Origin: a virus
Lineage: Duplodnaviria; Heunggongvirae; Uroviricota; Caudoviricetes
Reading direction: 5' to 3' (one strand)
DNA length: 10,211 nucleotides
IMG/VR virus record: IMGVR_UViG_3300029736_000350
Shown piece after piece: positions 1-9,004 of the stretch. The stretch's first letter is position 1; each line of letters begins with the position of its first letter. Both the position numbers and the translations under genes were made by a program. Below the pieces are notes generated by a model. The model had not been told where the DNA came from and did not search any database. It was given only the letters and a program-made list of their open reading frames with translations.

Positions 1-150
1 TCATATAGCCATTTCCGGACATACTGGTCTGAATGTTACCCATTCCACTAATTTGTCCATTAAAAAGTCATCTCTTTTGTGACCACCATCAAAACGAACA
101 GCAGAACCGCCCAAACAACCGCTGATCCCAATCACAGGTTTTTTTATCAT
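1..150 (-). CDS. 49-codon ORF resembling the N-terminus of DUF523 (YbgA/TudS-like) proteins; probable truncated remnant
   Basis: Not in the ORF track (too short). ATG at 150..148 preceded by GGGGAGG; translation MIKKPVIGISGCLGGSAVRFDGGHKRDDFLMDKLVEWVTFRPVCPEMAI, stop TGA at 3..1. The GCLGG...RFDGGHKR and PVCPE motifs match my recollection of DUF523 N-termini, but those proteins are roughly three times longer, so this looks truncated. Family assignment is from memory. Confidence 0.35.
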   Translation of the reverse strand: MIKKPVIGISGCLGGSAVRFDGGHKRDDFLMDKLVEWVTFRPVCPEMAI

Positions 151-342
151 TTCCTCCCCCTTGACTAATTCATTAACACATAAACTTTGTAGTGCACGGA
201 CTAAATTGCCTTTCTGGCTTCATCACTGACAATTTTTCTGTTATTGACTATTCCTAATATAGTAGGAAAGTTCTTTAAGTGATCGGTCGTACTCATCTAT
301 CTTTCATACTTACTCTCAACTATCAAAAGTACAGGATTTATT

Positions 343-867
343 ATGAAGTTATGGCCTGTGTTGGCTGGCATTGCACTCTCTTTCACTCTTATAGCATGTA
401 AGGCTCCGACACCACCTAAAGGTGTGCAGCCGATTACAAATTTTGACGCCAACCGCTACCTCGGAAAATGGTATGAAATAGCTCGCCTCGAGAACTGGTT
501 CGAACGTGGTCTGGAACAGGTCAGCGCTACTTATGAAAAACGGAACGACGGAGGGATTCGCGTACTTAACCGTGGATACGATCCAACGAAAAACAAATGG
601 AGCGAGAGCGAAGGTAAAGCATACTTTACTGGAGATACTAAAACTGCAGCGTTGAAAGTTTCGTTTTTTGGCCCCTTCTATGGTGGCTATAATGTAATCA
701 AACTGGATGATGAGTATAAGTATGCTCTTGTCAGTGGTCCGAACAGAGAATACCTATGGATTCTGGCAAGGACCCAAACTATTCCAGATAATGTAAAAGC
801 AGACTATGTGCGTACCGCTCAAAAGTTGGGATTCAATGTCAATGAACTATTATGGGTTAAACAATAA
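343..867 (+). CDS. blc: Blc-family bacterial lipocalin, predicted outer-membrane lipoprotein
   Basis: 174-aa ORF; ATG at 343 with AGGA about 8 nt upstream. Signal peptide with lipobox LIAC (Cys19, Lys at +2). Lipocalin motifs GKWYEIAR and SFFGPFYGGYNVI. Clearly homologous to, but divergent from, the E. coli chromosomal Blc as I recall it; visibly more AT-rich than neighbouring genes. Confidence 0.88.
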   Translation: MKLWPVLAGIALSFTLIACKAPTPPKGVQPITNFDANRYLGKWYEIARLENWFERGLEQVSATYEKRNDGGIRVLNRGYDPTKNKWSESEGKAYFTGDTKTAALKVSFFGPFYGGYNVIKLDDEYKYALVSGPNREYLWILARTQTIPDNVKADYVRTAQKLGFNVNELLWVKQ

Positions 868-895
868 AATCCCCACCCGAAATGATACTTATTAG

Positions 896-922
896 AAAAA
901 AACCAGCCTTTGGGGAGGCTGG
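896..922 (-). terminator. Rho-independent terminator for minus-strand transcription, downstream of Q (tR'-like)
   Basis: Perfect 7-bp inverted repeat CCAGCCT (903..909) / AGGCTGG (916..922) with 6-nt loop. On the minus strand the hairpin is followed by a 7-U run (complement of A896..A902). On the plus strand no U-tract follows, so it is unidirectional. Confidence 0.65.
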
Positions 923-1022
923 CTAAATCAGGAAATAAGCTGTTATATGATAATAACTACGTTGCGATTCCAACATTTAAAATGTTAGACTAATGAAAAT
1001 CAGACAGCAACTTTTCCTTTAA

Positions 1023-1400
1023 TTATTTCGAACAATCAGCATCCATCTCCAATCGGAGATCCAACACCATCAGCATGCCCTCCACTACGCCCTCAGCTTT
1101 CTGGAGCATCCTGCCAACCCAACAATCAGATCGCCCATGCTTACGTGCAAGCGCCATAAAAGTCATGCCGCCGACATAATAGTCCACCAATAAATCATGT
1201 AAATCGCTGTTGTTTTTTTTCAGGCGAGCCATACATTCACAAATGATCATCGCGTCATCGTCACAGCATTGCGGACGAGATCTTACTTTTGAAGGAATTA
1301 ATCCCTTAAAACCGGCGGCAATGGACGACCAGGTCACATCTTCATGATTATTAGCCGCCCATGCCCCCCAACGCTCAAGAACCATCTGAATATCACGCAT
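1023..1400 (-). CDS. Phage antitermination protein Q (QuuD / phage 82 type)
   Basis: Track ORF 1023..1415 begins with a TTG; the likely true start is ATG at 1400 ([22 protein letters not shown]...) with GGAG about 9 nt upstream. Sequence matches the DLP12 QuuD-type Q antiterminator as I recall it, including the [11 protein letters not shown] cysteine-rich motif. Confidence 0.85.
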
Positions 1401-1417
1401 CAACTTACTCCACAAAA

Positions 1418-2348
1418 TTAGGCCAGCACACCAATTGCCAGCGCGCGATCGATAAATCGAAAAATCAGCTCCAGTTGGGAGCCATACTTCTCTTCAAATG
1501 CCACGGTATCCGTATGCAACTCGTCGTGATGCTTTCTGCACAAAGGCAAAACAAAGAGATCATGTGCTTTGGTTCCCATTCCGCCCTGCCCGTGACCAAT
1601 CAGATGATGCGGATCGTCGGCTGGCATACCGCAGCAAGCACACGGCTGTGTCTTAACCCAGCGTGTGTATTTCTCCTTAACCCACCGGTGACGTTTAGGC
1701 AGCTTCATGAAAGATTCCGGAGACTCTGGATCAACGGTGATGCTTACCACCGTCTTTTCCTGTGATGGGTTTTGTTGCTGGTGGGCGTGAGGCAACGGTG
1801 CAAGATTTTTTGTGCGCTGTTTCAATATGCTGGTGGCGGTCTGCTCTCCCGGTACGATGTCGCTTTCGCGGTACACCGAGCAGATTTTTTCCGCTGGTAA
1901 TCCCAGCGAGCGACGTAATACCGCTTCCGGTAGCGCGTCCGCCAGCTGATTGCGGACCGCCCACCAGGATACCCGGGTATTGTGGAATACCGGCATGGAT
2001 TCACGGCCCGGCTTAACGACCACCAGCCCAAGTTCCGGTACCAGAACAGGTCGAAGTAATACCCGCACGTTACCTCCAGATGCGTTGCTGGAATGTACGG
2101 GACGGACGCGGTGGGCGTTCGGAGTAAGGCAATCTGACTGAGATTATCCAGTGACGGTAGTCGAGACTAAGGGCTTTCTTAACCTCGTATCCGCGCCTGC
2201 GGTAACACTGAATTATCCATTCAGCCTGCTCTTCAGTGCATGGAGGGTGTTGGAACCATTCAGACTTGAATGCGTGAGAATACCGCTCGTGCGTGCAGAC
2301 AAGAACGGGCGAATTATCAGAATTGTAATATTTTACGTTGCGTGCCAT
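1418..2348 (-). pseudogene. DUF968 / YdfU-like HNH-type putative nuclease, split by a frameshift
   Basis: Two adjacent minus-strand ORFs, 2070..2348 (ATG at 2348, GGAG 9 nt upstream) and 1418..2068 (starts at GTG). Both frames are open across 2070..2143, so a single indel there would rejoin them to about 310 aa. C-terminal part carries a Cys/His motif (PCACCG...HHLIGHG...CRKHHDELH). Sits directly upstream of Q, as ydfU does in K-12 Qin. DUF number is from memory. Confidence 0.6.
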
Positions 2349-2414: not shown

Positions 2415-2567
2415 TTATTCTTCTGCAAAAGCTGAAAAGCCTGCTTTTATTCCGATCTCTTTCAGTGCCTGTATCCCCCAAGCAGCAACACTTGCCAGTC
2501 TCACTCCTGCGGCATTGGCAAGCTTTGTTTTGCTGCCAAAAAAAGTAATTGCGTCAACTTTAAGCAT
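2415..2567 (-). CDS. Cro/DicC-like small regulator, divergent from the repressor gene
   Basis: Not in the ORF track (50 aa). ATG at 2567 with GAGGGGG 5-6 nt upstream; translation MLKVDAITFFGSKTKLANAAGVRLASVAAWGIQALKEIGIKAGFSAFAEE, stop at 2415..2417. Position (divergent from the dicA-like gene, first gene of the operon leading to Q) and the GSKTKLA...AG..LASV pattern fit a Cro/DicC-type protein. Confidence 0.55.
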   Translation of the reverse strand: MLKVDAITFFGSKTKLANAAGVRLASVAAWGIQALKEIGIKAGFSAFAEE

Positions 2568-2647: not shown

Positions 2648-3055
2648 ATGGATACAAGAACCCTAGGCCAGCGAGTTCTGGCGCGACGAAAAGAATTACG
2701 CTTAACACAACGAGAAGCTGCGCGCCTCGCTGGAGTTGCTCACGTCACAATTTCACAATGGGAAAGAGACGAAACCCAGCCAGTCGGAAAACGATTGTTT
2801 GCTTTAGCGGATGCTCTGAAGTGCTCACCTACATGGCTAATGTTTGGTGACGAAGACAAGGCACCAGTGCCTGCACAAGAACTTCATGTGGAAACAGAGC
2901 TAACTCCCAACCACAAAGAATTGATCGAATTATTCGATGCTCTTCCATCTTCCGAGCAGGAAGCCTTGCTGTCTGAAATGCGCGCAAGAGTAGAAAACTT
3001 CAACAAACTCTTCGAAGAAATGCTTAAAGCGCGTAAAAATAAATCAATAAAATAA
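2648..3055 (+). CDS. dicA: DicA-like HTH (XRE-family) prophage repressor
   Basis: 135-aa ORF; N-terminal HTH (LRLTQREAARLAGVAHVTISQWERDE) and C-terminal region (CSPTW..FGDEDK....LPSSEQ..LSEMRARVENFNKLFEEMLKAR) closely resemble E. coli DicA as recalled, while the HTH region appears more divergent. No strong SD before the ATG at 2648; an in-frame TAG at 2633 rules out an upstream start. Confidence 0.85.
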   Translation: MDTRTLGQRVLARRKELRLTQREAARLAGVAHVTISQWERDETQPVGKRLFALADALKCSPTWLMFGDEDKAPVPAQELHVETELTPNHKELIELFDALPSSEQEALLSEMRARVENFNKLFEEMLKARKNKSIK

Positions 3056-3087
3056 CATTCTTTTCAAGTGATTAGTTGCGCCCACCC

Positions 3088-3113
3088 TTTTTGTTAGATC
3101 AATCTAACAAAAA
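3088..3113. promoter_or_regulatory. Palindromic operator (OL-like) upstream of the ydfA-dicB operon
   Basis: Extended perfect inverted repeat TTTTTGTTAGA-tcaa-TCTAACAAAAA; core arms identical to the operator at 2581..2598. Lies between the dicA-like stop (3055) and the ydfA start (3224). Confidence 0.6.
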
Positions 3114-3127
3114 ACACTCGCCTCTCA

Positions 3128-3145
3128 TGTTAGGTTATTCTAAAT
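3128..3145. promoter_or_regulatory. Degenerate third operator-like site
   Basis: TGTTAG-gttat-TCTAAAT, an imperfect copy of the operator palindrome about 36 bp downstream of the perfect site; possible cooperative site. Confidence 0.3.
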
Positions 3146-3223
3146 TACTTTCCATCAAGACACCGCACGGTGTTCTCAGCAAACAGTTCCGCTACCCCGG
3201 CGTTAAGGGGAAATGAGGTCAGC

Positions 3224-4197: not shown

Positions 4198-4255
4198 TTT
4201 CTGGTGACGTTTGGCGGTATCAGTTTTACTCCGTGACTGCTCTGCCGCCGTTTTT
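4198..4255 (+). ncRNA. dicF: DicF small RNA
   Basis: TTTCTGGTGACGTTTGGCGGTATCAGTTTTACTCCGTGACTGCTCTGCCGCC matches the E. coli DicF sequence as I recall it, followed by a T5 run; located between the ydfB/C-like ORF and dicB as in K-12. Ends are approximate. Confidence 0.75.
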
Positions 4256-4894: not shown

Positions 4895-7366
4895 ATGAGT
4901 AAAGTCTTTATTTGCGCCGCTATTCCTGACGAACTGGCAACAAGGGAAGAAGGCGCTGTGGCTGTAGCCACAGCCATTGAAGCTGGCGACGAACGCCGTG
5001 CTCGAGCAAAATTTCACTGGCAGTTCCTGGAACATTATCCGGCTGCTCAGGACTGCGCTTATAAATTTATTGTCTGCGAGGATAAACCTGGCATACCCCG
5101 CCCTGCCCTCGATTCATGGGATGCTGAATATATGCAGGAAAACCGCTGGGATGAGGAGTCTGCTTCTTTTGTCCCGGTTGAGACTGAATCCGATCCGATG
5201 AACGTCACTTTTGACAAGCTGGCCCCTGAAGTACAGAACGCTGTCATGGTTAAGTTCGACACATGTGAAAACATCACCGTTGATATGGTTATTAGCGCAC
5301 AGGAATTGTTGCAGGAAGACATGGCAACATTCGACGGACATATCGTTGAAGCGTTGATGAAAATGCCAGAAGTTAACGCCATGTATCCGGAGCTTAAGTT
5401 GCACGCCATTGGGTGGGTTAAGCATAAATGTATTCCTGGTGCTAAATGGCCCGAAATTCAGGCAGAGATGCGCATCTGGAAAAAACGTCGCGAAGGTGAA
5501 CGCAAGGAAACCGGAAAATACACGTCTGTTGTTGATCTCGCCCGCGCCAGAGCCAATCAACAGTACACTGAAAATTCAACAGGAAAAATCAGCCCGGTCA
5601 TTGCTGCCATTCATCGCGAATACAAGCAGACATGGAAAACACTGGATGACGAACTGGCCTACGCTCTCTGGCCTGGTGATGTGGATGCCGGAAACATTGA
5701 CGGCAGCATCCATCGCTGGGCAAAAAAAGAAGTTATCGACAACGACCGCGAAGACTGGAAGCGTATCTCGGCATCAATGCGCAAACAGCCTGATGCCCTT
5801 CGCTACGACCGCCAAACTATTTTTGGCCTTGTCCGTGAGCGTCCGATCGACATTCACAAAGATCCCGTAGCACTGAACAAATATATCTGCGAATACCTGA
5901 CGACAAAGGGCGTGTTTGAGAATGAAGAAACAGACCTGGGCACTGTTGATGTTCTCCAGTCATCAGAAACACAAACTGATGCAGTGGAAACTGAGGTATC
6001 TGATATCCCAAAAAATGAAACCGCGCCGGAAGCTGAACCATCTGTAGAGCGTGAGGGGCCGTTCTATTTCCTCTTCGCAGATAAGGACGGAGAAAAATAC
6101 GGTCGCGCAAACAAACTTTCTGGTCTGGATAAGGCACTGGCTGCTGGCGCCACTGAAATCACAAAAGAAGAATATTTTGCCCGAAAAAATGGCACATACA
6201 CGGGCTTACCGCAAAATGTAGATACCGCTGAAGATTCAGAACAACCAGAGCCGATAAAAGTTACCGCTGACGAAGTAAACAAAATTATGCAGGCAGCCAA
6301 TATCAGCCAGCCTGACGCCGATAAGTTGCTTGCTGCATCACATGGTGAATTTGTTGAAGGGATTAGTGACCCGAATGATCCGAAATGGGTTAAGGGGATC
6401 CAGACCCGCGATTCTGTGAACCAGAACCAGCATGAATCGGAACGGAACTACCAAAAAGCGGAACAAAACAGCCCAAATGCGTTACAAAACGAGCCAGAAA
6501 CGAAACAGCCTGAACCAGTGGCGCAACAGGAAGTGGAAAAAGTCTGCACCGCCTGCGGTCAGACCGGCGGCGGCAACTGCCCTGATTGTGGCGCGGTGAT
6601 GGGCGACGCAACATACCAAAAAACATTCGATGAAGAGTATCAGGTTGAAGTTCAGGAAGATGATCCGGAGGAAATGGAAGGCGCTGAACATCCACACAAG
6701 GAGAACACTGGCGGCAATCAGCATCACAATAGCGATAATGAAACTGGCGAGACGGCAGATCACTCAATTAAGGTGAACAGTCATCACGAAATCACATCCA
6801 CCAGCAGGACGTGTGACCATCTAATGATCGACCTTGAAACCATGGGAAAAAATCCTGATGCACCGATCATCTCAATAGGTGCAATATTTTTCGATCCGCA
6901 AACCGGAGATATAGGACCGGAATTTAGTAAGACTATCGATCTGGAAACTGCTGGCGGAGTCATTGATCGGGACACCATTAAATGGTGGCTTAAGCAATCA
7001 CGCGAAGCACAATCTGCCATTATGACCGATGAAATCCCGCTAGATGATGCACTGTTACAATTGCGGGAATTTATCGACGAAAACTCCGGTGAATTTTTTG
7101 TTCAGGTTTGGGGAAATGGAGCCAACTTCGACAACACGATTTTGCGCCGTTCATACGAACGGCAGGGGATCCCCTGCCCGTGGCGTTACTACAACGATCG
7201 CGATGTACGCACAATCGTTGAGCTGGGGAAAGCCATAGATTTCGATGCCAGAACGGCTATTCCATTCGAAGGTGAGCGCCATAATGCACTTGATGACGCC
7301 CGTTACCAAGCAAAATACGTTTCAGTTATCTGGCAAAAACTGATCCCGAGTCAGGCTGATTCTTAA
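4895..7366 (+). CDS. Large YdfE-like early protein: N-terminal domain of unknown function, Cys4 zinc ribbon, C-terminal DEDDh (DnaQ-like) 3'-5' exonuclease domain
   Basis: 823-aa ORF; ATG at 4895 with GAGG about 10 nt upstream. C-terminal motifs: Exo I MIDLETMG (D646, E648; nt 6830..6838), Exo II WGNGANFD (nt 7109..7132), Exo III HNALDDA (nt 7280..7300). C-x2-C-x7-C-x2-C at aa 551..565 (nt 6545..6589). Acidic low-complexity linkers around aa 335..380 and 575..630. Occupies the recE-like position upstream of xis-int. Confidence 0.85.
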   Translation: MSKVFICAAIPDELATREEGAVAVATAIEAGDERRARAKFHWQFLEHYPAAQDCAYKFIVCEDKPGIPRPALDSWDAEYMQENRWDEESASFVPVETESDPMNVTFDKLAPEVQNAVMVKFDTCENITVDMVISAQELLQEDMATFDGHIVEALMKMPEVNAMYPELKLHAIGWVKHKCIPGAKWPEIQAEMRIWKKRREGERKETGKYTSVVDLARARANQQYTENSTGKISPVIAAIHREYKQTWKTLDDELAYALWPGDVDAGNIDGSIHRWAKKEVIDNDREDWKRISASMRKQPDALRYDRQTIFGLVRERPIDIHKDPVALNKYICEYLTTKGVFENEETDLGTVDVLQSSETQTDAVETEVSDIPKNETAPEAEPSVEREGPFYFLFADKDGEKYGRANKLSGLDKALAAGATEITKEEYFARKNGTYTGLPQNVDTAEDSEQPEPIKVTADEVNKIMQAANISQPDADKLLAASHGEFVEGISDPNDPKWVKGIQTRDSVNQNQHESERNYQKAEQNSPNALQNEPETKQPEPVAQQEVEKVCTACGQTGGGNCPDCGAVMGDATYQKTFDEEYQVEVQEDDPEEMEGAEHPHKENTGGNQHHNSDNETGETADHSIKVNSHHEITSTSRTCDHLMIDLETMGKNPDAPIISIGAIFFDPQTGDIGPEFSKTIDLETAGGVIDRDTIKWWLKQSREAQSAIMTDEIPLDDALLQLREFIDENSGEFFVQVWGNGANFDNTILRRSYERQGIPCPWRYYNDRDVRTIVELGKAIDFDARTAIPFEGERHNALDDARYQAKYVSVIWQKLIPSQADS

Positions 7367-7438
7367 TGTTCAACTGTCGCCGGTTGTGACTGGTATTCTG
7401 CAACCGGCGCTCGTCTGATGTAAGAGATAAAGAAATCG

Positions 7439-7690
7439 ATGAGCGAAGTAATCATGATTGTCTCTCCCGGCAAATGGGTATCCGAAGAGCAGTTAATTGC
7501 GCTGAAAGGAATAAAAAAAGGTACGTTAAAAAAGGCCCGGTAAAAATCGTTTATGGAAGGAAGGGAATATAAGCATGTCGCTCATGACGGTATGCCATGG
7601 GATAACAGTCCATGCTTTTACAACCTGGAAGAAATTGATCGCTGGATTGAGCGCCAGGCATCAGCGAGACCAAGACGTCATCTTACTTGA
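7439..7690 (+). pseudogene. Excisionase (Xis)-like gene interrupted by a +1 frameshift
   Basis: Frame A: ATG at 7439 gives MSEVIMIVSPGKWVSEEQLIALKGIKKGTLKKAR, stop at 7541. Frame B from 7545 gives KSFMEGREYKHVAHDGMPWDNSPCFYNLEEIDRWIERQASARPRRHLT, stop at 7688..7690. Joined, this is an ~80-aa protein with the GREY motif of lambda-type Xis. The shift must lie in 7515..7540, which contains A-runs. Confidence 0.55.
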
Positions 7691-7724
7691 CTAAAAGCCA
7701 CACTAACTAATGAGAGAAGTTGAA

Positions 7725-9004
7725 ATGAAATATCCGACAGGCGTGGAAAACCATGGAGGGAAATTACGTATCTGGTTTGTTTATAAAGGCGTAAGAGTCA
7801 GGGAAAATCTGGGGGTTCCTGACACAGCAAAAAACAGGCGCGTTGCAGGTGAACTACGCGCCTCTGTTTGTTACGCAATAAAAACTGGTGTTTTCGACTA
7901 TGCAAAACAGTTTCCCTCCTCACGCAATCTGGAAAAATTTGGTGAGGCCCGACAAGATTTAACCATAAAAGAACTGGCTGAAAAATTTCTGGCACTAAAA
8001 GAAACTGAAGTCGCCAAAACATCACTCAACACATACCGTGCCGTCATCAAAAATATCCTGAGCATAATCGGTGAAAAAAATCTTGCCTCATCGATTAATA
8101 AAGAAAAATTACTGGAGGTTCGTAAAGAGCTACTGACTGGATACCAGATCCCCAAAAGTAACTATATTGTTACACAACCAGGGAGATCGGCTGTAACTGT
8201 AAATAATTACATGACAAATCTTAACGCCGTGTTCCAGTTTGGTGTTGATAACGGTTACCTGGCAGATAATCCGTTTAAGGGGATCTCGCCATTAAAGGAA
8301 TCAAGAACCATTCCGGATCCTCTTTCGCGGGAGGAATTTATCCGTCTTATCGATGCGTGCAGAAATCAGCAAGCAAAAAATTTATGGTGTGTTTCTGTTT
8401 ATACTGGCATTCGCCCTGGTGAGCTGTGTGCACTTGGATGGGAGGACATAGATCTGAAAAATGGAACAATGATGATCAGGAGAAATTTAGCAAAAGACCG
8501 TTTCACGGTACCAAAAACACAGGCGGGAACCAATCGGGTCATTCATCTTATTAAGCCAGCAATCGACGCTCTCCGGAGTCAGATGACATTAACGAGACTG
8601 AGCAAAGAGCATATCATTGATGTTCACCTCAGAGAGTATGGCAGAACAGAAAAACAAAATGCACCTTTGTTTTTCAACCTGAAGTGTCAGCGAGAGTAAA
8701 AAATTATGGTGACCATTTTACCGTTGACTCAATAAGGCAGATGTGGGACGCAGCGATAAAACGTGCCGGACTCCGCCATCGAAAATCATATCAGTCGAGA
8801 CATACTTATGCCTGCTGGTCGCTGACAGCTGGTGCTAACCCGGCATTTATAGCAAACCAGATGGGCCATGCAGATGCGCAAATGGTATTTCAGGTATACG
8901 GAAAATGGATGTCTGAAAACAATAATGCACAGGTAGCTTTGTTAAATACACAGTTAAGCGAGTTTGCCCCAACCATGCCCCATAACGAAGCAATGAAAAA
9001 TTAA
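7725..9004 (+). pseudogene. intQ: Tyrosine recombinase (phage integrase) split by a frameshift
   Basis: Track ORFs 7710..8699 and 8684..9004 (second starts at GTG). Likely start ATG at 7725 (MKYPTGVENHGGKLRIWF, arm-binding N-terminus) with GAGAG upstream. First frame carries the box I Arg (YTGIRPGEL); second frame carries H-x-x-R (LRHRKSYQSRHTY), a His (MGH) and the catalytic Tyr (QVYGKW). Both frames open across 8621..8696. Position next to rspB matches intQ of K-12, itself annotated as defective. Confidence 0.8.

Follow-up and report, generated by a model that had tools for sequence, protein, structure and literature searches.

The lipocalin gene and its surroundings

The stretch of DNA analysed here, referred to as the window, is a sequence of 10,211 nucleotides from a tailed virus of the Caudoviricetes (IMG/VR virus record IMGVR_UViG_3300029736_000350) that carries a lipocalin gene, blc, between the antiterminator gene Q and a fragment of rudS, a gene for a tRNA 4-thiouridine desulfidase. 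The blc-like gene occupies positions 343..867 of the plus strand, starts with an ATG that has an AGGA (333..336) six nucleotides on its 5' side, and encodes a lipoprotein lipocalin of 174 amino acids. The product matches the Pfam family Lipocalin_2 (PF08212, E 7.5e-43) and the NCBIfam model NF007786, 'outer membrane lipoprotein Blc' (312 bits over residues 1-174, with a cutoff of 267); the solved structures of Escherichia coli Blc (3mbt and 1qwd) align to residues 16-174 with E values of 1e-65 to 1e-67, and among phage families the protein falls in phrog_2809 of PHROG, which has no assigned function. The N-terminus reads MKLWPVLAGIALSFTLIA followed by CKA, that is, a predicted lipoprotein signal peptide (codons 1-18, 343..396) with a lipobox L-I-A-C, in which Cys19 (397..399) is the residue predicted to be lipid-modified. 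The residue at +2 from this cysteine is a lysine and the aspartate that serves as inner-membrane retention signal is absent, which is the type predicted to be sorted to the outer membrane. In a family alignment of 22 sequences, A18-C19 is invariant, as are G41, W43, Y44 and the FFGPxYGGYN block, and the window protein retains every invariant position. Taken together, these matches establish the predicted product of 343..867 as a Blc-type lipoprotein lipocalin and confirm what an earlier, sequence-only reading of the window had proposed, namely a Blc-family lipocalin gene on the plus strand beside Q. That reading had also described the gene as more AT-rich than its neighbours, which holds for the comparison of its guanine plus cytosine (GC) content (43.8%) with that of Q (47.4%) and of the nearby DUF968 gene (54.1%), and fails for the rudS fragment, which is lower still (40.7%), with the mean of the whole window (45.6%) being close to the value of blc.

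The antiterminator gene faces blc tail to tail from the minus strand (1023..1400, 125 amino acids, or up to 1415 and 130 amino acids if translation starts from an upstream TTG). It belongs to the Q21/QuuD family (PF06530, E 8e-51) and is distantly related to Q21, whose structures 6p18 and 6jnx match at E 5e-9; the identity to Q21 is too low for its binding site to be transferred onto the window Q. The convergent spacer between the two genes (868..1022, 34.8% GC) holds the Q late-promoter region and a terminator, and its portion from approximately 970 to 893 is nearly invariant between the window and the phages 1H12 and IdasGreatGrand. Two candidate promoters of the pR' type lie on the minus strand: TGGAGA-18-AATAAT at 1051..1022, which comes from a consensus scan and overlaps the stop codon of Q, and TTGCTG-17-TAACAT at 1010..982, which comes from our own reading of the sequence and has a -10 that varies among phages (TAACAT or TAATGT). 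They are followed by a tR'-like intrinsic terminator for transcripts arriving from the Q side (893..924, minus strand), found by terminator scan and by folding, which has a stem of nine pairs (924..901) and then a T-run, folds on the minus strand with -19.1 kcal/mol (z = -4.4), and ends 26 nucleotides before the stop codon of blc. Read on the plus strand, the hairpin runs into CUAAAUC, which is not a U-tract, and it folds no better than shuffled sequences (z = -0.5). The polarity of the 924..893 terminator is that of the minus strand, and the tR'-like terminator that had been proposed at 896..922 is thus borne out. A Q gene with a promoter-proximal intrinsic terminator on the same strand is the organisation of a Q-dependent late unit, and this is what the locus is predicted to be. 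An Rfam scan gave no match in 1..1100.

The K-12 gene quuD is 85% identical in nucleotides to the window Q, and the similarity, followed leftwards, ends within the gene at window position 1041, being absent from the last Q codons and from the spacer. The end of this similarity within Q indicates that the blc-bearing allele has a promoter/terminator segment of its own. For the same reason, the boundary of the blc insertion could not be drawn by comparison with Q alleles that lack blc. In one viral contig (L039, approximately 6600..7800), the spacer between Q and blc is interrupted, upstream of its conserved GTTGGAATCGCAAC block, by an insertion sequence with a long, unannotated transposase-like open reading frame (ORF), which parts Q from its terminator.

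On the other side of blc, across a divergent spacer of 32.8% GC (151..342), lies the 5' stub of rudS (1..150, minus strand, with the ATG at 150..148), which comprises 49 codons of a TudS/DUF523-DUF1722 fusion. The stub matches the Pfam family 2-thiour_desulf (E 1e-11) and is 86% identical in amino acids to gp66 of phage 1H12 (RudS_vir). The gene is truncated by an IS3 element just past window position 1, and RefSeq lists it as a pseudogene 'missing C-terminus' beside IS3 in E. coli BL21(DE3) and REL606. In REL606 the prophage rudS is split by IS3 (locus L004, 930..1760 and 3004..3150), and in BL21(DE3) its distal part has been lost. Intact relatives also carry a gene of the AraC family for a protein of 243 amino acids between rudS and the holin gene (L002, 2417..3148, minus strand; L004, 1..523). 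Its best matches, which are below threshold, are the acid-resistance regulators YdeO and GadX, and the prophage may use it to regulate stress genes of the host.

Phage linkage and prevalence

In the isolated, plaque-forming phages 1H12 and IdasGreatGrand, the genes follow one another in the order Q (minus strand), blc (plus strand), rudS of 319 amino acids (minus), araC-like gene of 243 amino acids (minus) and holin-endolysin-Rz (minus). Neighbours were further tabulated by tblastn in 80 IMG/VR viral contigs, together with four annotated loci. In every contig that is long enough, the same Q allele (95-100% identical in amino acids) lies about 683 nucleotides from the start of blc, the exception being L039, in which the insertion sequence in the spacer has brought this distance to 2006 nucleotides; rudS starts 1149 nucleotides upstream of blc in most of the contigs. 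The outer modules vary, with a DUF968 gene or RusA found past Q, and two unrelated endolysins found among the contigs (95-98% or approximately 31-34% identical to the reference). The mosaic unit that travels together thus consists of Q, the late promoter/terminator segment, blc and rudS, and blc is carried inside functional phage genomes between variable outer modules, as befits a moron. Among the examined loci, that is, the annotated loci and the 80 contigs, no copy of blc in a prophage-free context was found. In functional phages the lysis and structural genes are encoded past blc and on the other strand, and this gene order predicts that late transcripts coming from the Q side run across blc in antisense.

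The sequence-only reading had regarded the gene as a moron at the site downstream of Q and had left it to comparison whether it travels with Q-containing prophages. The gene order in 1H12, IdasGreatGrand and the 80 contigs supports both points. That reading had also put blc where the lysis genes should begin, which needs amending: in intact relatives the interval between Q and holin holds blc, rudS and the AraC-like gene, and in the window the distal part is cut off by IS3 just past position 1. The moron status of the phage blc is already known in the literature and in annotation, since a study that isolated 1H12-type phages listed blc among the morons, with more than 50% of its 19 lambda-like phages carrying it (Mathieu et al. 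2020, PMC6969025). No paper that discusses how the phage lipocalin gene is oriented, where it came from or what it does was found in a search of the literature.

The unit is common in E. coli. A segment of 863 bp containing blc was found in 1143 of the 5426 complete E. coli genomes, 1037 of which match over at least 80% of the query, and also in 12 Escherichia phage records, while a near full-length prophage rudS was found in 1064 of the same 5426 genomes.

The first 2400 bases of the window are 100% identical to the E. coli B strains REL606 and BL21(DE3), as well as to a strain that was deposited under the name E. coli C. In BL21(DE3) and REL606 the segment sits in a defective lambdoid prophage that lies between a truncated ydfJ and rspB, and in BL21(DE3) the tail-fibre genes and the attachment-site flank ydfJ' lie further left of blc. 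The integrase frame is broken in the window (7710..9004, plus strand, with ORFs at 7710..8699 and 8684..9004; frameshifted according to RefSeq), and the DUF968 gene (1418..2068, minus strand) is marked by RefSeq as N-terminally truncated. Both defects fit a prophage in decay, one that has kept blc, Q and the terminator intact. By comparison with REL606, 4168 bp are absent from the window at 2468..2473, with an overlap of 6 bp at the junction. The absent DNA holds rem, hokD, queH, a methyltransferase fragment, DUF977, a hypothetical gene, ydaT and part of a cro-like gene. All ten of the complete genomes listed match the window as two pieces and none is contiguous, and the absence is either a strain-specific deletion or an artefact of the construction of the window. 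The sole Rfam match in the window is the small RNA DicF (4199..4250, plus strand; RF00039, 72.5 bits), which lies 5' of dicB/ydfD as in the Qin prophage of K-12.

Origin of the phage lipocalin

The window protein is 59% identical in amino acids to E. coli Blc over its full length, a figure obtained with an E. coli Blc sequence that agrees with the PDB alignment where both overlap. This bears out the divergence from the chromosomal Blc that had been claimed from the sequence alone. The chromosomal Blc was compared at the protein level, given that a blastn search in 'distant' mode, which matched 1412 of the 5426 genomes, appeared to miss the E. coli blc itself, its listed hits of 60-80% identity being plasmid copies of a Citrobacter-type blc. 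The closest non-phage proteins are 72-79% identical and come from Cedecea, Enterobacter, Leclercia, Klebsiella, Pantoea and related genera; in a search of 5.8 billion proteins the nearest relative was no closer than 79%.

These closest relatives are set in a characteristic neighbourhood. In its long form, found in Cedecea lapagei and Klebsiella variicola, the lipocalin gene is divergent from an operon headed by a MerR/MlrA-like gene, which continues with genes for a SnoaL-like protein, a short-chain dehydrogenase/reductase, an amine oxidase, DUF1365, a cyclopropane-fatty-acid-synthase-like protein, DUF2878 and DUF3833, and which ends with a rudS of 319 amino acids. In its short form, the MerR-like gene is accompanied by rudS, as seen in Enterobacter mori, E. 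sichuanensis, E. intestinihominis, Leclercia tamurae and one metagenomic contig; L085, the one short-form locus for which genes were called, has a transthyretin-like gene in between. The lipocalins with 53-61% identity to the phage protein, which come from E. coli, E. ruysiae, Salmonella, Citrobacter, Enterobacter chuandaensis and others, have instead, in most of the loci, a convergent sugE about 530 nucleotides past the start. At the loci compared, sugE was not found next to the phage gene or next to any of its MerR-linked relatives. In a neighbour-joining tree with 100 bootstraps, the three phage alleles group together (100/100) and are joined to the MerR-linked group (100/100), apart from the sugE-linked genes. 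The window gene was considered as an orthologue of the sugE/ampC-linked blc of E. coli, and this was rejected on both synteny and tree clustering. Judged by tree and neighbourhood, the phage blc belongs to a separate, MerR/rudS-linked lipocalin clade and is not a drifted copy of the E. coli gene.

The phage RudS is in turn 71-76% identical to the RudS of the same MerR-linked clusters. Because the phage keeps the two end genes of the cluster, blc and rudS were probably captured together, in a single event that was followed by loss of merR and the intervening genes. The junction of such a deletion was sought by local alignment of the spacers and was not located, the scores being no higher than those of shuffled sequences.

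Comparison of the upstream regions gives some indication of what may have been retained. A candidate -10 element of blc, CATACT followed by TA (305..310, plus strand), was placed by its aligned position relative to the homologues: CATACTT of the window (305..311), which is AATACTT in 1H12, aligns to the conserved CTACACTT of the MerR-linked chromosomal lipocalin genes, where it stands roughly 30-40 nucleotides ahead of the start codon. The sugE-linked genes also bear the CTACACTT motif at a similar distance from the ATG, as judged from unaligned upstream sequences. Further upstream, in a position-constrained comparison, the block AATATAGTAGGAA (256..268), which reads TATATT on the minus strand, matches the AATATACTACGAA of the homologues at 11 of 13 positions. 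By our count, the block lies 87 nucleotides from the ATG both in the window and in the Cedecea locus L087, and in the donor-type clusters AATATACTACGAA is found approximately 30 nucleotides before the start codon of merR. The AATATAGTAGGAA block may be a relic of the -10 of the donor operon promoter. The blc promoter in this spacer is a putative one, and both the 13-nucleotide block and the -10-like element are taken as suggestive.

Two further sets of lipocalin genes were seen. In Chromatiaceae and Burkholderiales (L137, L140, L148 and L150), a Blc-type lipocalin gene directly follows, on the same strand, genes for an amine oxidase, DUF1365 and a cyclopropane-fatty-acid-synthase-like protein. 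This arrangement indicates that the tie of the lipocalin to a lipid-modification cluster is old and wider than the Enterobacterales. In addition, 362 plasmid places in E. coli bear another lipocalin gene, with approximately 67-73% nucleotide identity (hits H106-H111), which we take to be probably a Citrobacter-type blc travelling with blaCMY-2 and unrelated to the phage copy.

Role of the phage lipocalin and comparison with known systems

From 84 phage and prophage loci, 18 nucleotide alleles and nine protein variants were obtained, none with an internal stop. The ratio of nonsynonymous to synonymous substitution rates (dN/dS) has a pairwise median of 0.17 and is 0.06 for the most divergent pair, values that show purifying selection acting on the phage copies. 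In E. coli B the blc ORF is intact despite a rudS broken by IS3 and, together with the absence of stops, the low dN/dS and the retention of the invariant positions, this argues for a working protein. With good confidence, then, we regard blc as lysogenic-conversion cargo, a moron, of a widespread lineage of lambda-like E. coli phages, fixed in a unit composed of Q, promoter/terminator, blc, rudS and the araC-like gene ahead of the lysis cassette.

The course of events that we propose is as follows. An ancestral phage would have captured a piece of a MerR-linked cluster and dropped merR and the middle genes, which would have left blc and rudS back to back. In the lysogen, blc would be transcribed from its own weak promoter, with a diverged version of the CTACACTT -10 element, and after export the lipocalin would receive its lipid at Cys19 and be delivered to the periplasmic side of the outer membrane. 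E. coli Blc is a periplasm-facing protein with an outer-membrane anchor and has an affinity for lysophospholipids in the nanomolar range (PMC8177097); its gene is induced as cells enter stationary phase, and its expression is lower in an rpoS mutant (PMC4512719). The phage protein may likewise bind a hydrophobic ligand and serve in the upkeep of the envelope under stationary-phase or photo-oxidative stress. In the uninduced state, transcripts from the Q side would stop at 924..893, just before blc. Upon induction, Q-modified polymerase would read through in antisense across blc, silencing it, and then into rudS, the YdeO/GadX-like AraC gene and the lysis genes. In the window prophage this late path would be cut by the IS3 within rudS, with blc, Q and the terminator intact.

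Several observations weigh against this interpretation. The GC content of the phage blc (43.8%) departs from that of its nearest relatives (57-63%), and this low value, together with the finding of nothing closer than 79%, suggests that the true donor is unsampled or that the capture is old. E. coli does not carry the rest of the donor pathway, and the native ligand may therefore be absent. Upstream of blc, a consensus scan finds no sigma-70 promoter on either strand, and the T normally present at -12 is missing from the candidate -10, which reads CATACT in some phage alleles and AATACT in others. When the rudS-blc spacer was aligned locally to donor-type spacers without constraint, it scored no better than shuffled sequences, and the noncoding likeness to the donor cluster is short and, without the positional constraint, non-significant. 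On the downstream side, blc lacks a convincing terminator of its own, the sole hairpin there being the minus-strand terminator, and the late promoter is represented by three weak candidates. In addition, the literature search found no transcription, localisation or ligand data for the phage protein.

A more specific version holds that the Q-proximal island is a captured module against near-ultraviolet (near-UV) and photo-oxidative stress, split between the two life styles of the phage, with rudS expressed late and blc only in the lysogen. RudS enzymes strip 4-thiouridine from tRNA and their genes are typically found in light-responsive operons controlled by MerR/LitR, and overexpression of gp66 of phage 1H12 (RudS_vir) reduced the 4-thiouridine of tRNA (Jamontas et al. 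2024, PMC11417400). As the first gene past the late terminator, and on the same strand as the late operon, rudS would remove the photosensitive 4-thiouridine and so sustain translation in UV-damaged, induced cells, and blc would handle damaged lipids or lysolipids at the outer membrane of the lysogen until Q read-through turned it off; its convergent transcription might also dampen leakage into the lysis genes. We hold this version to be rather unlikely.

That blc may be a functionless passenger, brought along with rudS and unexpressed or useless in E. coli, fits a gene without a clear promoter or terminator of its own, with a -10-like element that has diverged from CTACACTT and with the other genes of the donor cluster missing. 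Such a passenger would hardly remain free of stops and frameshifts in all 18 alleles of the 84 loci, with the dN/dS values given above, nor would it be expected to keep its ORF intact in decaying prophages with an IS3-broken rudS and to retain all the invariant lipocalin positions, and we find it unlikely. A mainly regulatory role is, in our estimate, improbable as well: the convergent transcription of blc, or its RNA, would act as a brake on leaky read-through from the Q side into rudS and the lysis genes, which would be compatible with a function of the protein. The gene does converge on the promoter/terminator region, its transcripts may enter the late promoter because the plus-strand hairpin lacks a U-tract, and all 80 contigs show one and the same arrangement; a role purely at the level of RNA has no need of the purifying selection that is seen on the protein sequence.

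It has also to be weighed whether the lipoprotein is a superinfection-exclusion or receptor-masking factor like Cor or Llp, and not a lipid-binding factor of host fitness. By analogy alone, prophage outer-membrane lipoproteins often block receptors, and membrane proteins dominate among the morons of lambda-like phages (Mathieu et al., PMC6969025). In Pfam the protein matches lipocalin families only; it has no similarity to Cor, Llp or Bor, and shares 72-79% identity and the invariant core with chromosomal lipocalins that have no phage link, which makes such a factor very unlikely. The alternative put forward by the sequence-only reading, that the gene is chromosomal flank left beside Q once the late region was deleted, can draw on the IS3-associated deletion in BL21(DE3), which did take DNA just past the rudS fragment, and on the defects of the prophage (frameshifted integrase, truncated DUF968 gene), and it is refuted, with hardly any probability left to it, by the position of the gene inside the prophage with tail-fibre genes and the ydfJ' flank further left, by the identical Q-blc-rudS order in plaque-forming phages and IMG/VR contigs, and by the fact that the E. 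coli blc is a different, sugE-linked gene with 59% amino acid identity.

Read as lysogenic-conversion cargo, the lipocalin chiefly confirms textbook phage biology, in which the Q-to-S junction gathers cargo and antisense lipoprotein genes are expressed from lysogens. What is added here is the assignment of the paralogue, the probable co-capture with rudS, and the prevalence, with blc in approximately 19-21% and rudS in approximately 20% of complete E. coli genomes. About one in five of these genomes thus has two phage-borne additions, a second lipocalin and a RudS tRNA-desulfidase, and studies of blc alleles in gut E. coli may need to separate the two paralogues. E. coli is said to lack RudS, and the assays with UVA light were performed in BL21(DE3) (PMC11417400); the prevalence of the prophage rudS qualifies this claim, the BL21(DE3) copy being the 49-codon stub. 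The probable origin of the phage blc in a light/UV-stress cluster of other enterobacteria has not been noted previously, and the probable derivation of the pair from a MerR-controlled, light/UV-response cluster leads to a testable idea of how the cargo may benefit lysogens or induced phages.

Among known systems, the closest is the blc moron of coliphages, as in 1H12, where gp65 is annotated as 'Lipocalin Blc'. It is the same gene (93-97% identical in nucleotides and 95-97% in amino acids), likewise placed between Q and rudS and running against the late genes, with the difference that the window copy lies in a defective E. coli B prophage whose late region is interrupted by IS3. The published survey (PMC6969025) gives the frequency of this moron, not its orientation, origin or function. 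With E. coli Blc (1qwd, 2aco, 3mbt), the window protein shares the subfamily profile, the length, the lipobox and the lipocalin core, and the chromosomal genes carry a -10 of the CTACACTT type at a similar distance, whereas the identity is 59%, the synteny class and the clade are other ones, and the GC content is 52.6% in E. coli and 43.8% in the phage. The two proteins also differ at the loop of Gly84, a residue of E. coli Blc that has been implicated in the binding of lysophosphatidylethanolamine (PMC7026729): E. coli Blc has DRGMW and the window protein TKNKW. A link to the G84E polymorphism of Blc was considered and dropped, since the phage protein has an asparagine at that position. The MerR/MlrA-like...rudS operons of Cedecea, Klebsiella, Enterobacter and Leclercia hold the closest kin of both blc and rudS, likewise with a divergent lipocalin gene, whereas the phage lacks merR and all the genes up to rudS and has a GC content about 14 points lower.

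The bor gene of lambda, which had been invoked as a precedent, is an apt one, for it is likewise a lipoprotein gene within the late unit, on the opposite strand and expressed in lysogens, and 1H12 has a Bor-like gene in the same antisense orientation as its blc. There is no sequence kinship between the two; in the Pfam scan the window lipocalin matched lipocalin families only, and its likeness to Bor is positional alone. Moreover, bor lies after Rz and blc right after the late promoter/terminator, and the serum resistance conferred by Bor is not implied for the lipocalin. The cargo found between Q and S in other phages, stx in Stx phages and nmpC after quuD in DLP12, occupies the same hotspot directly downstream of Q. 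The stx genes are co-oriented with late transcription and depend on Q, whereas blc is antisense to it and is predicted to be shut off by Q.

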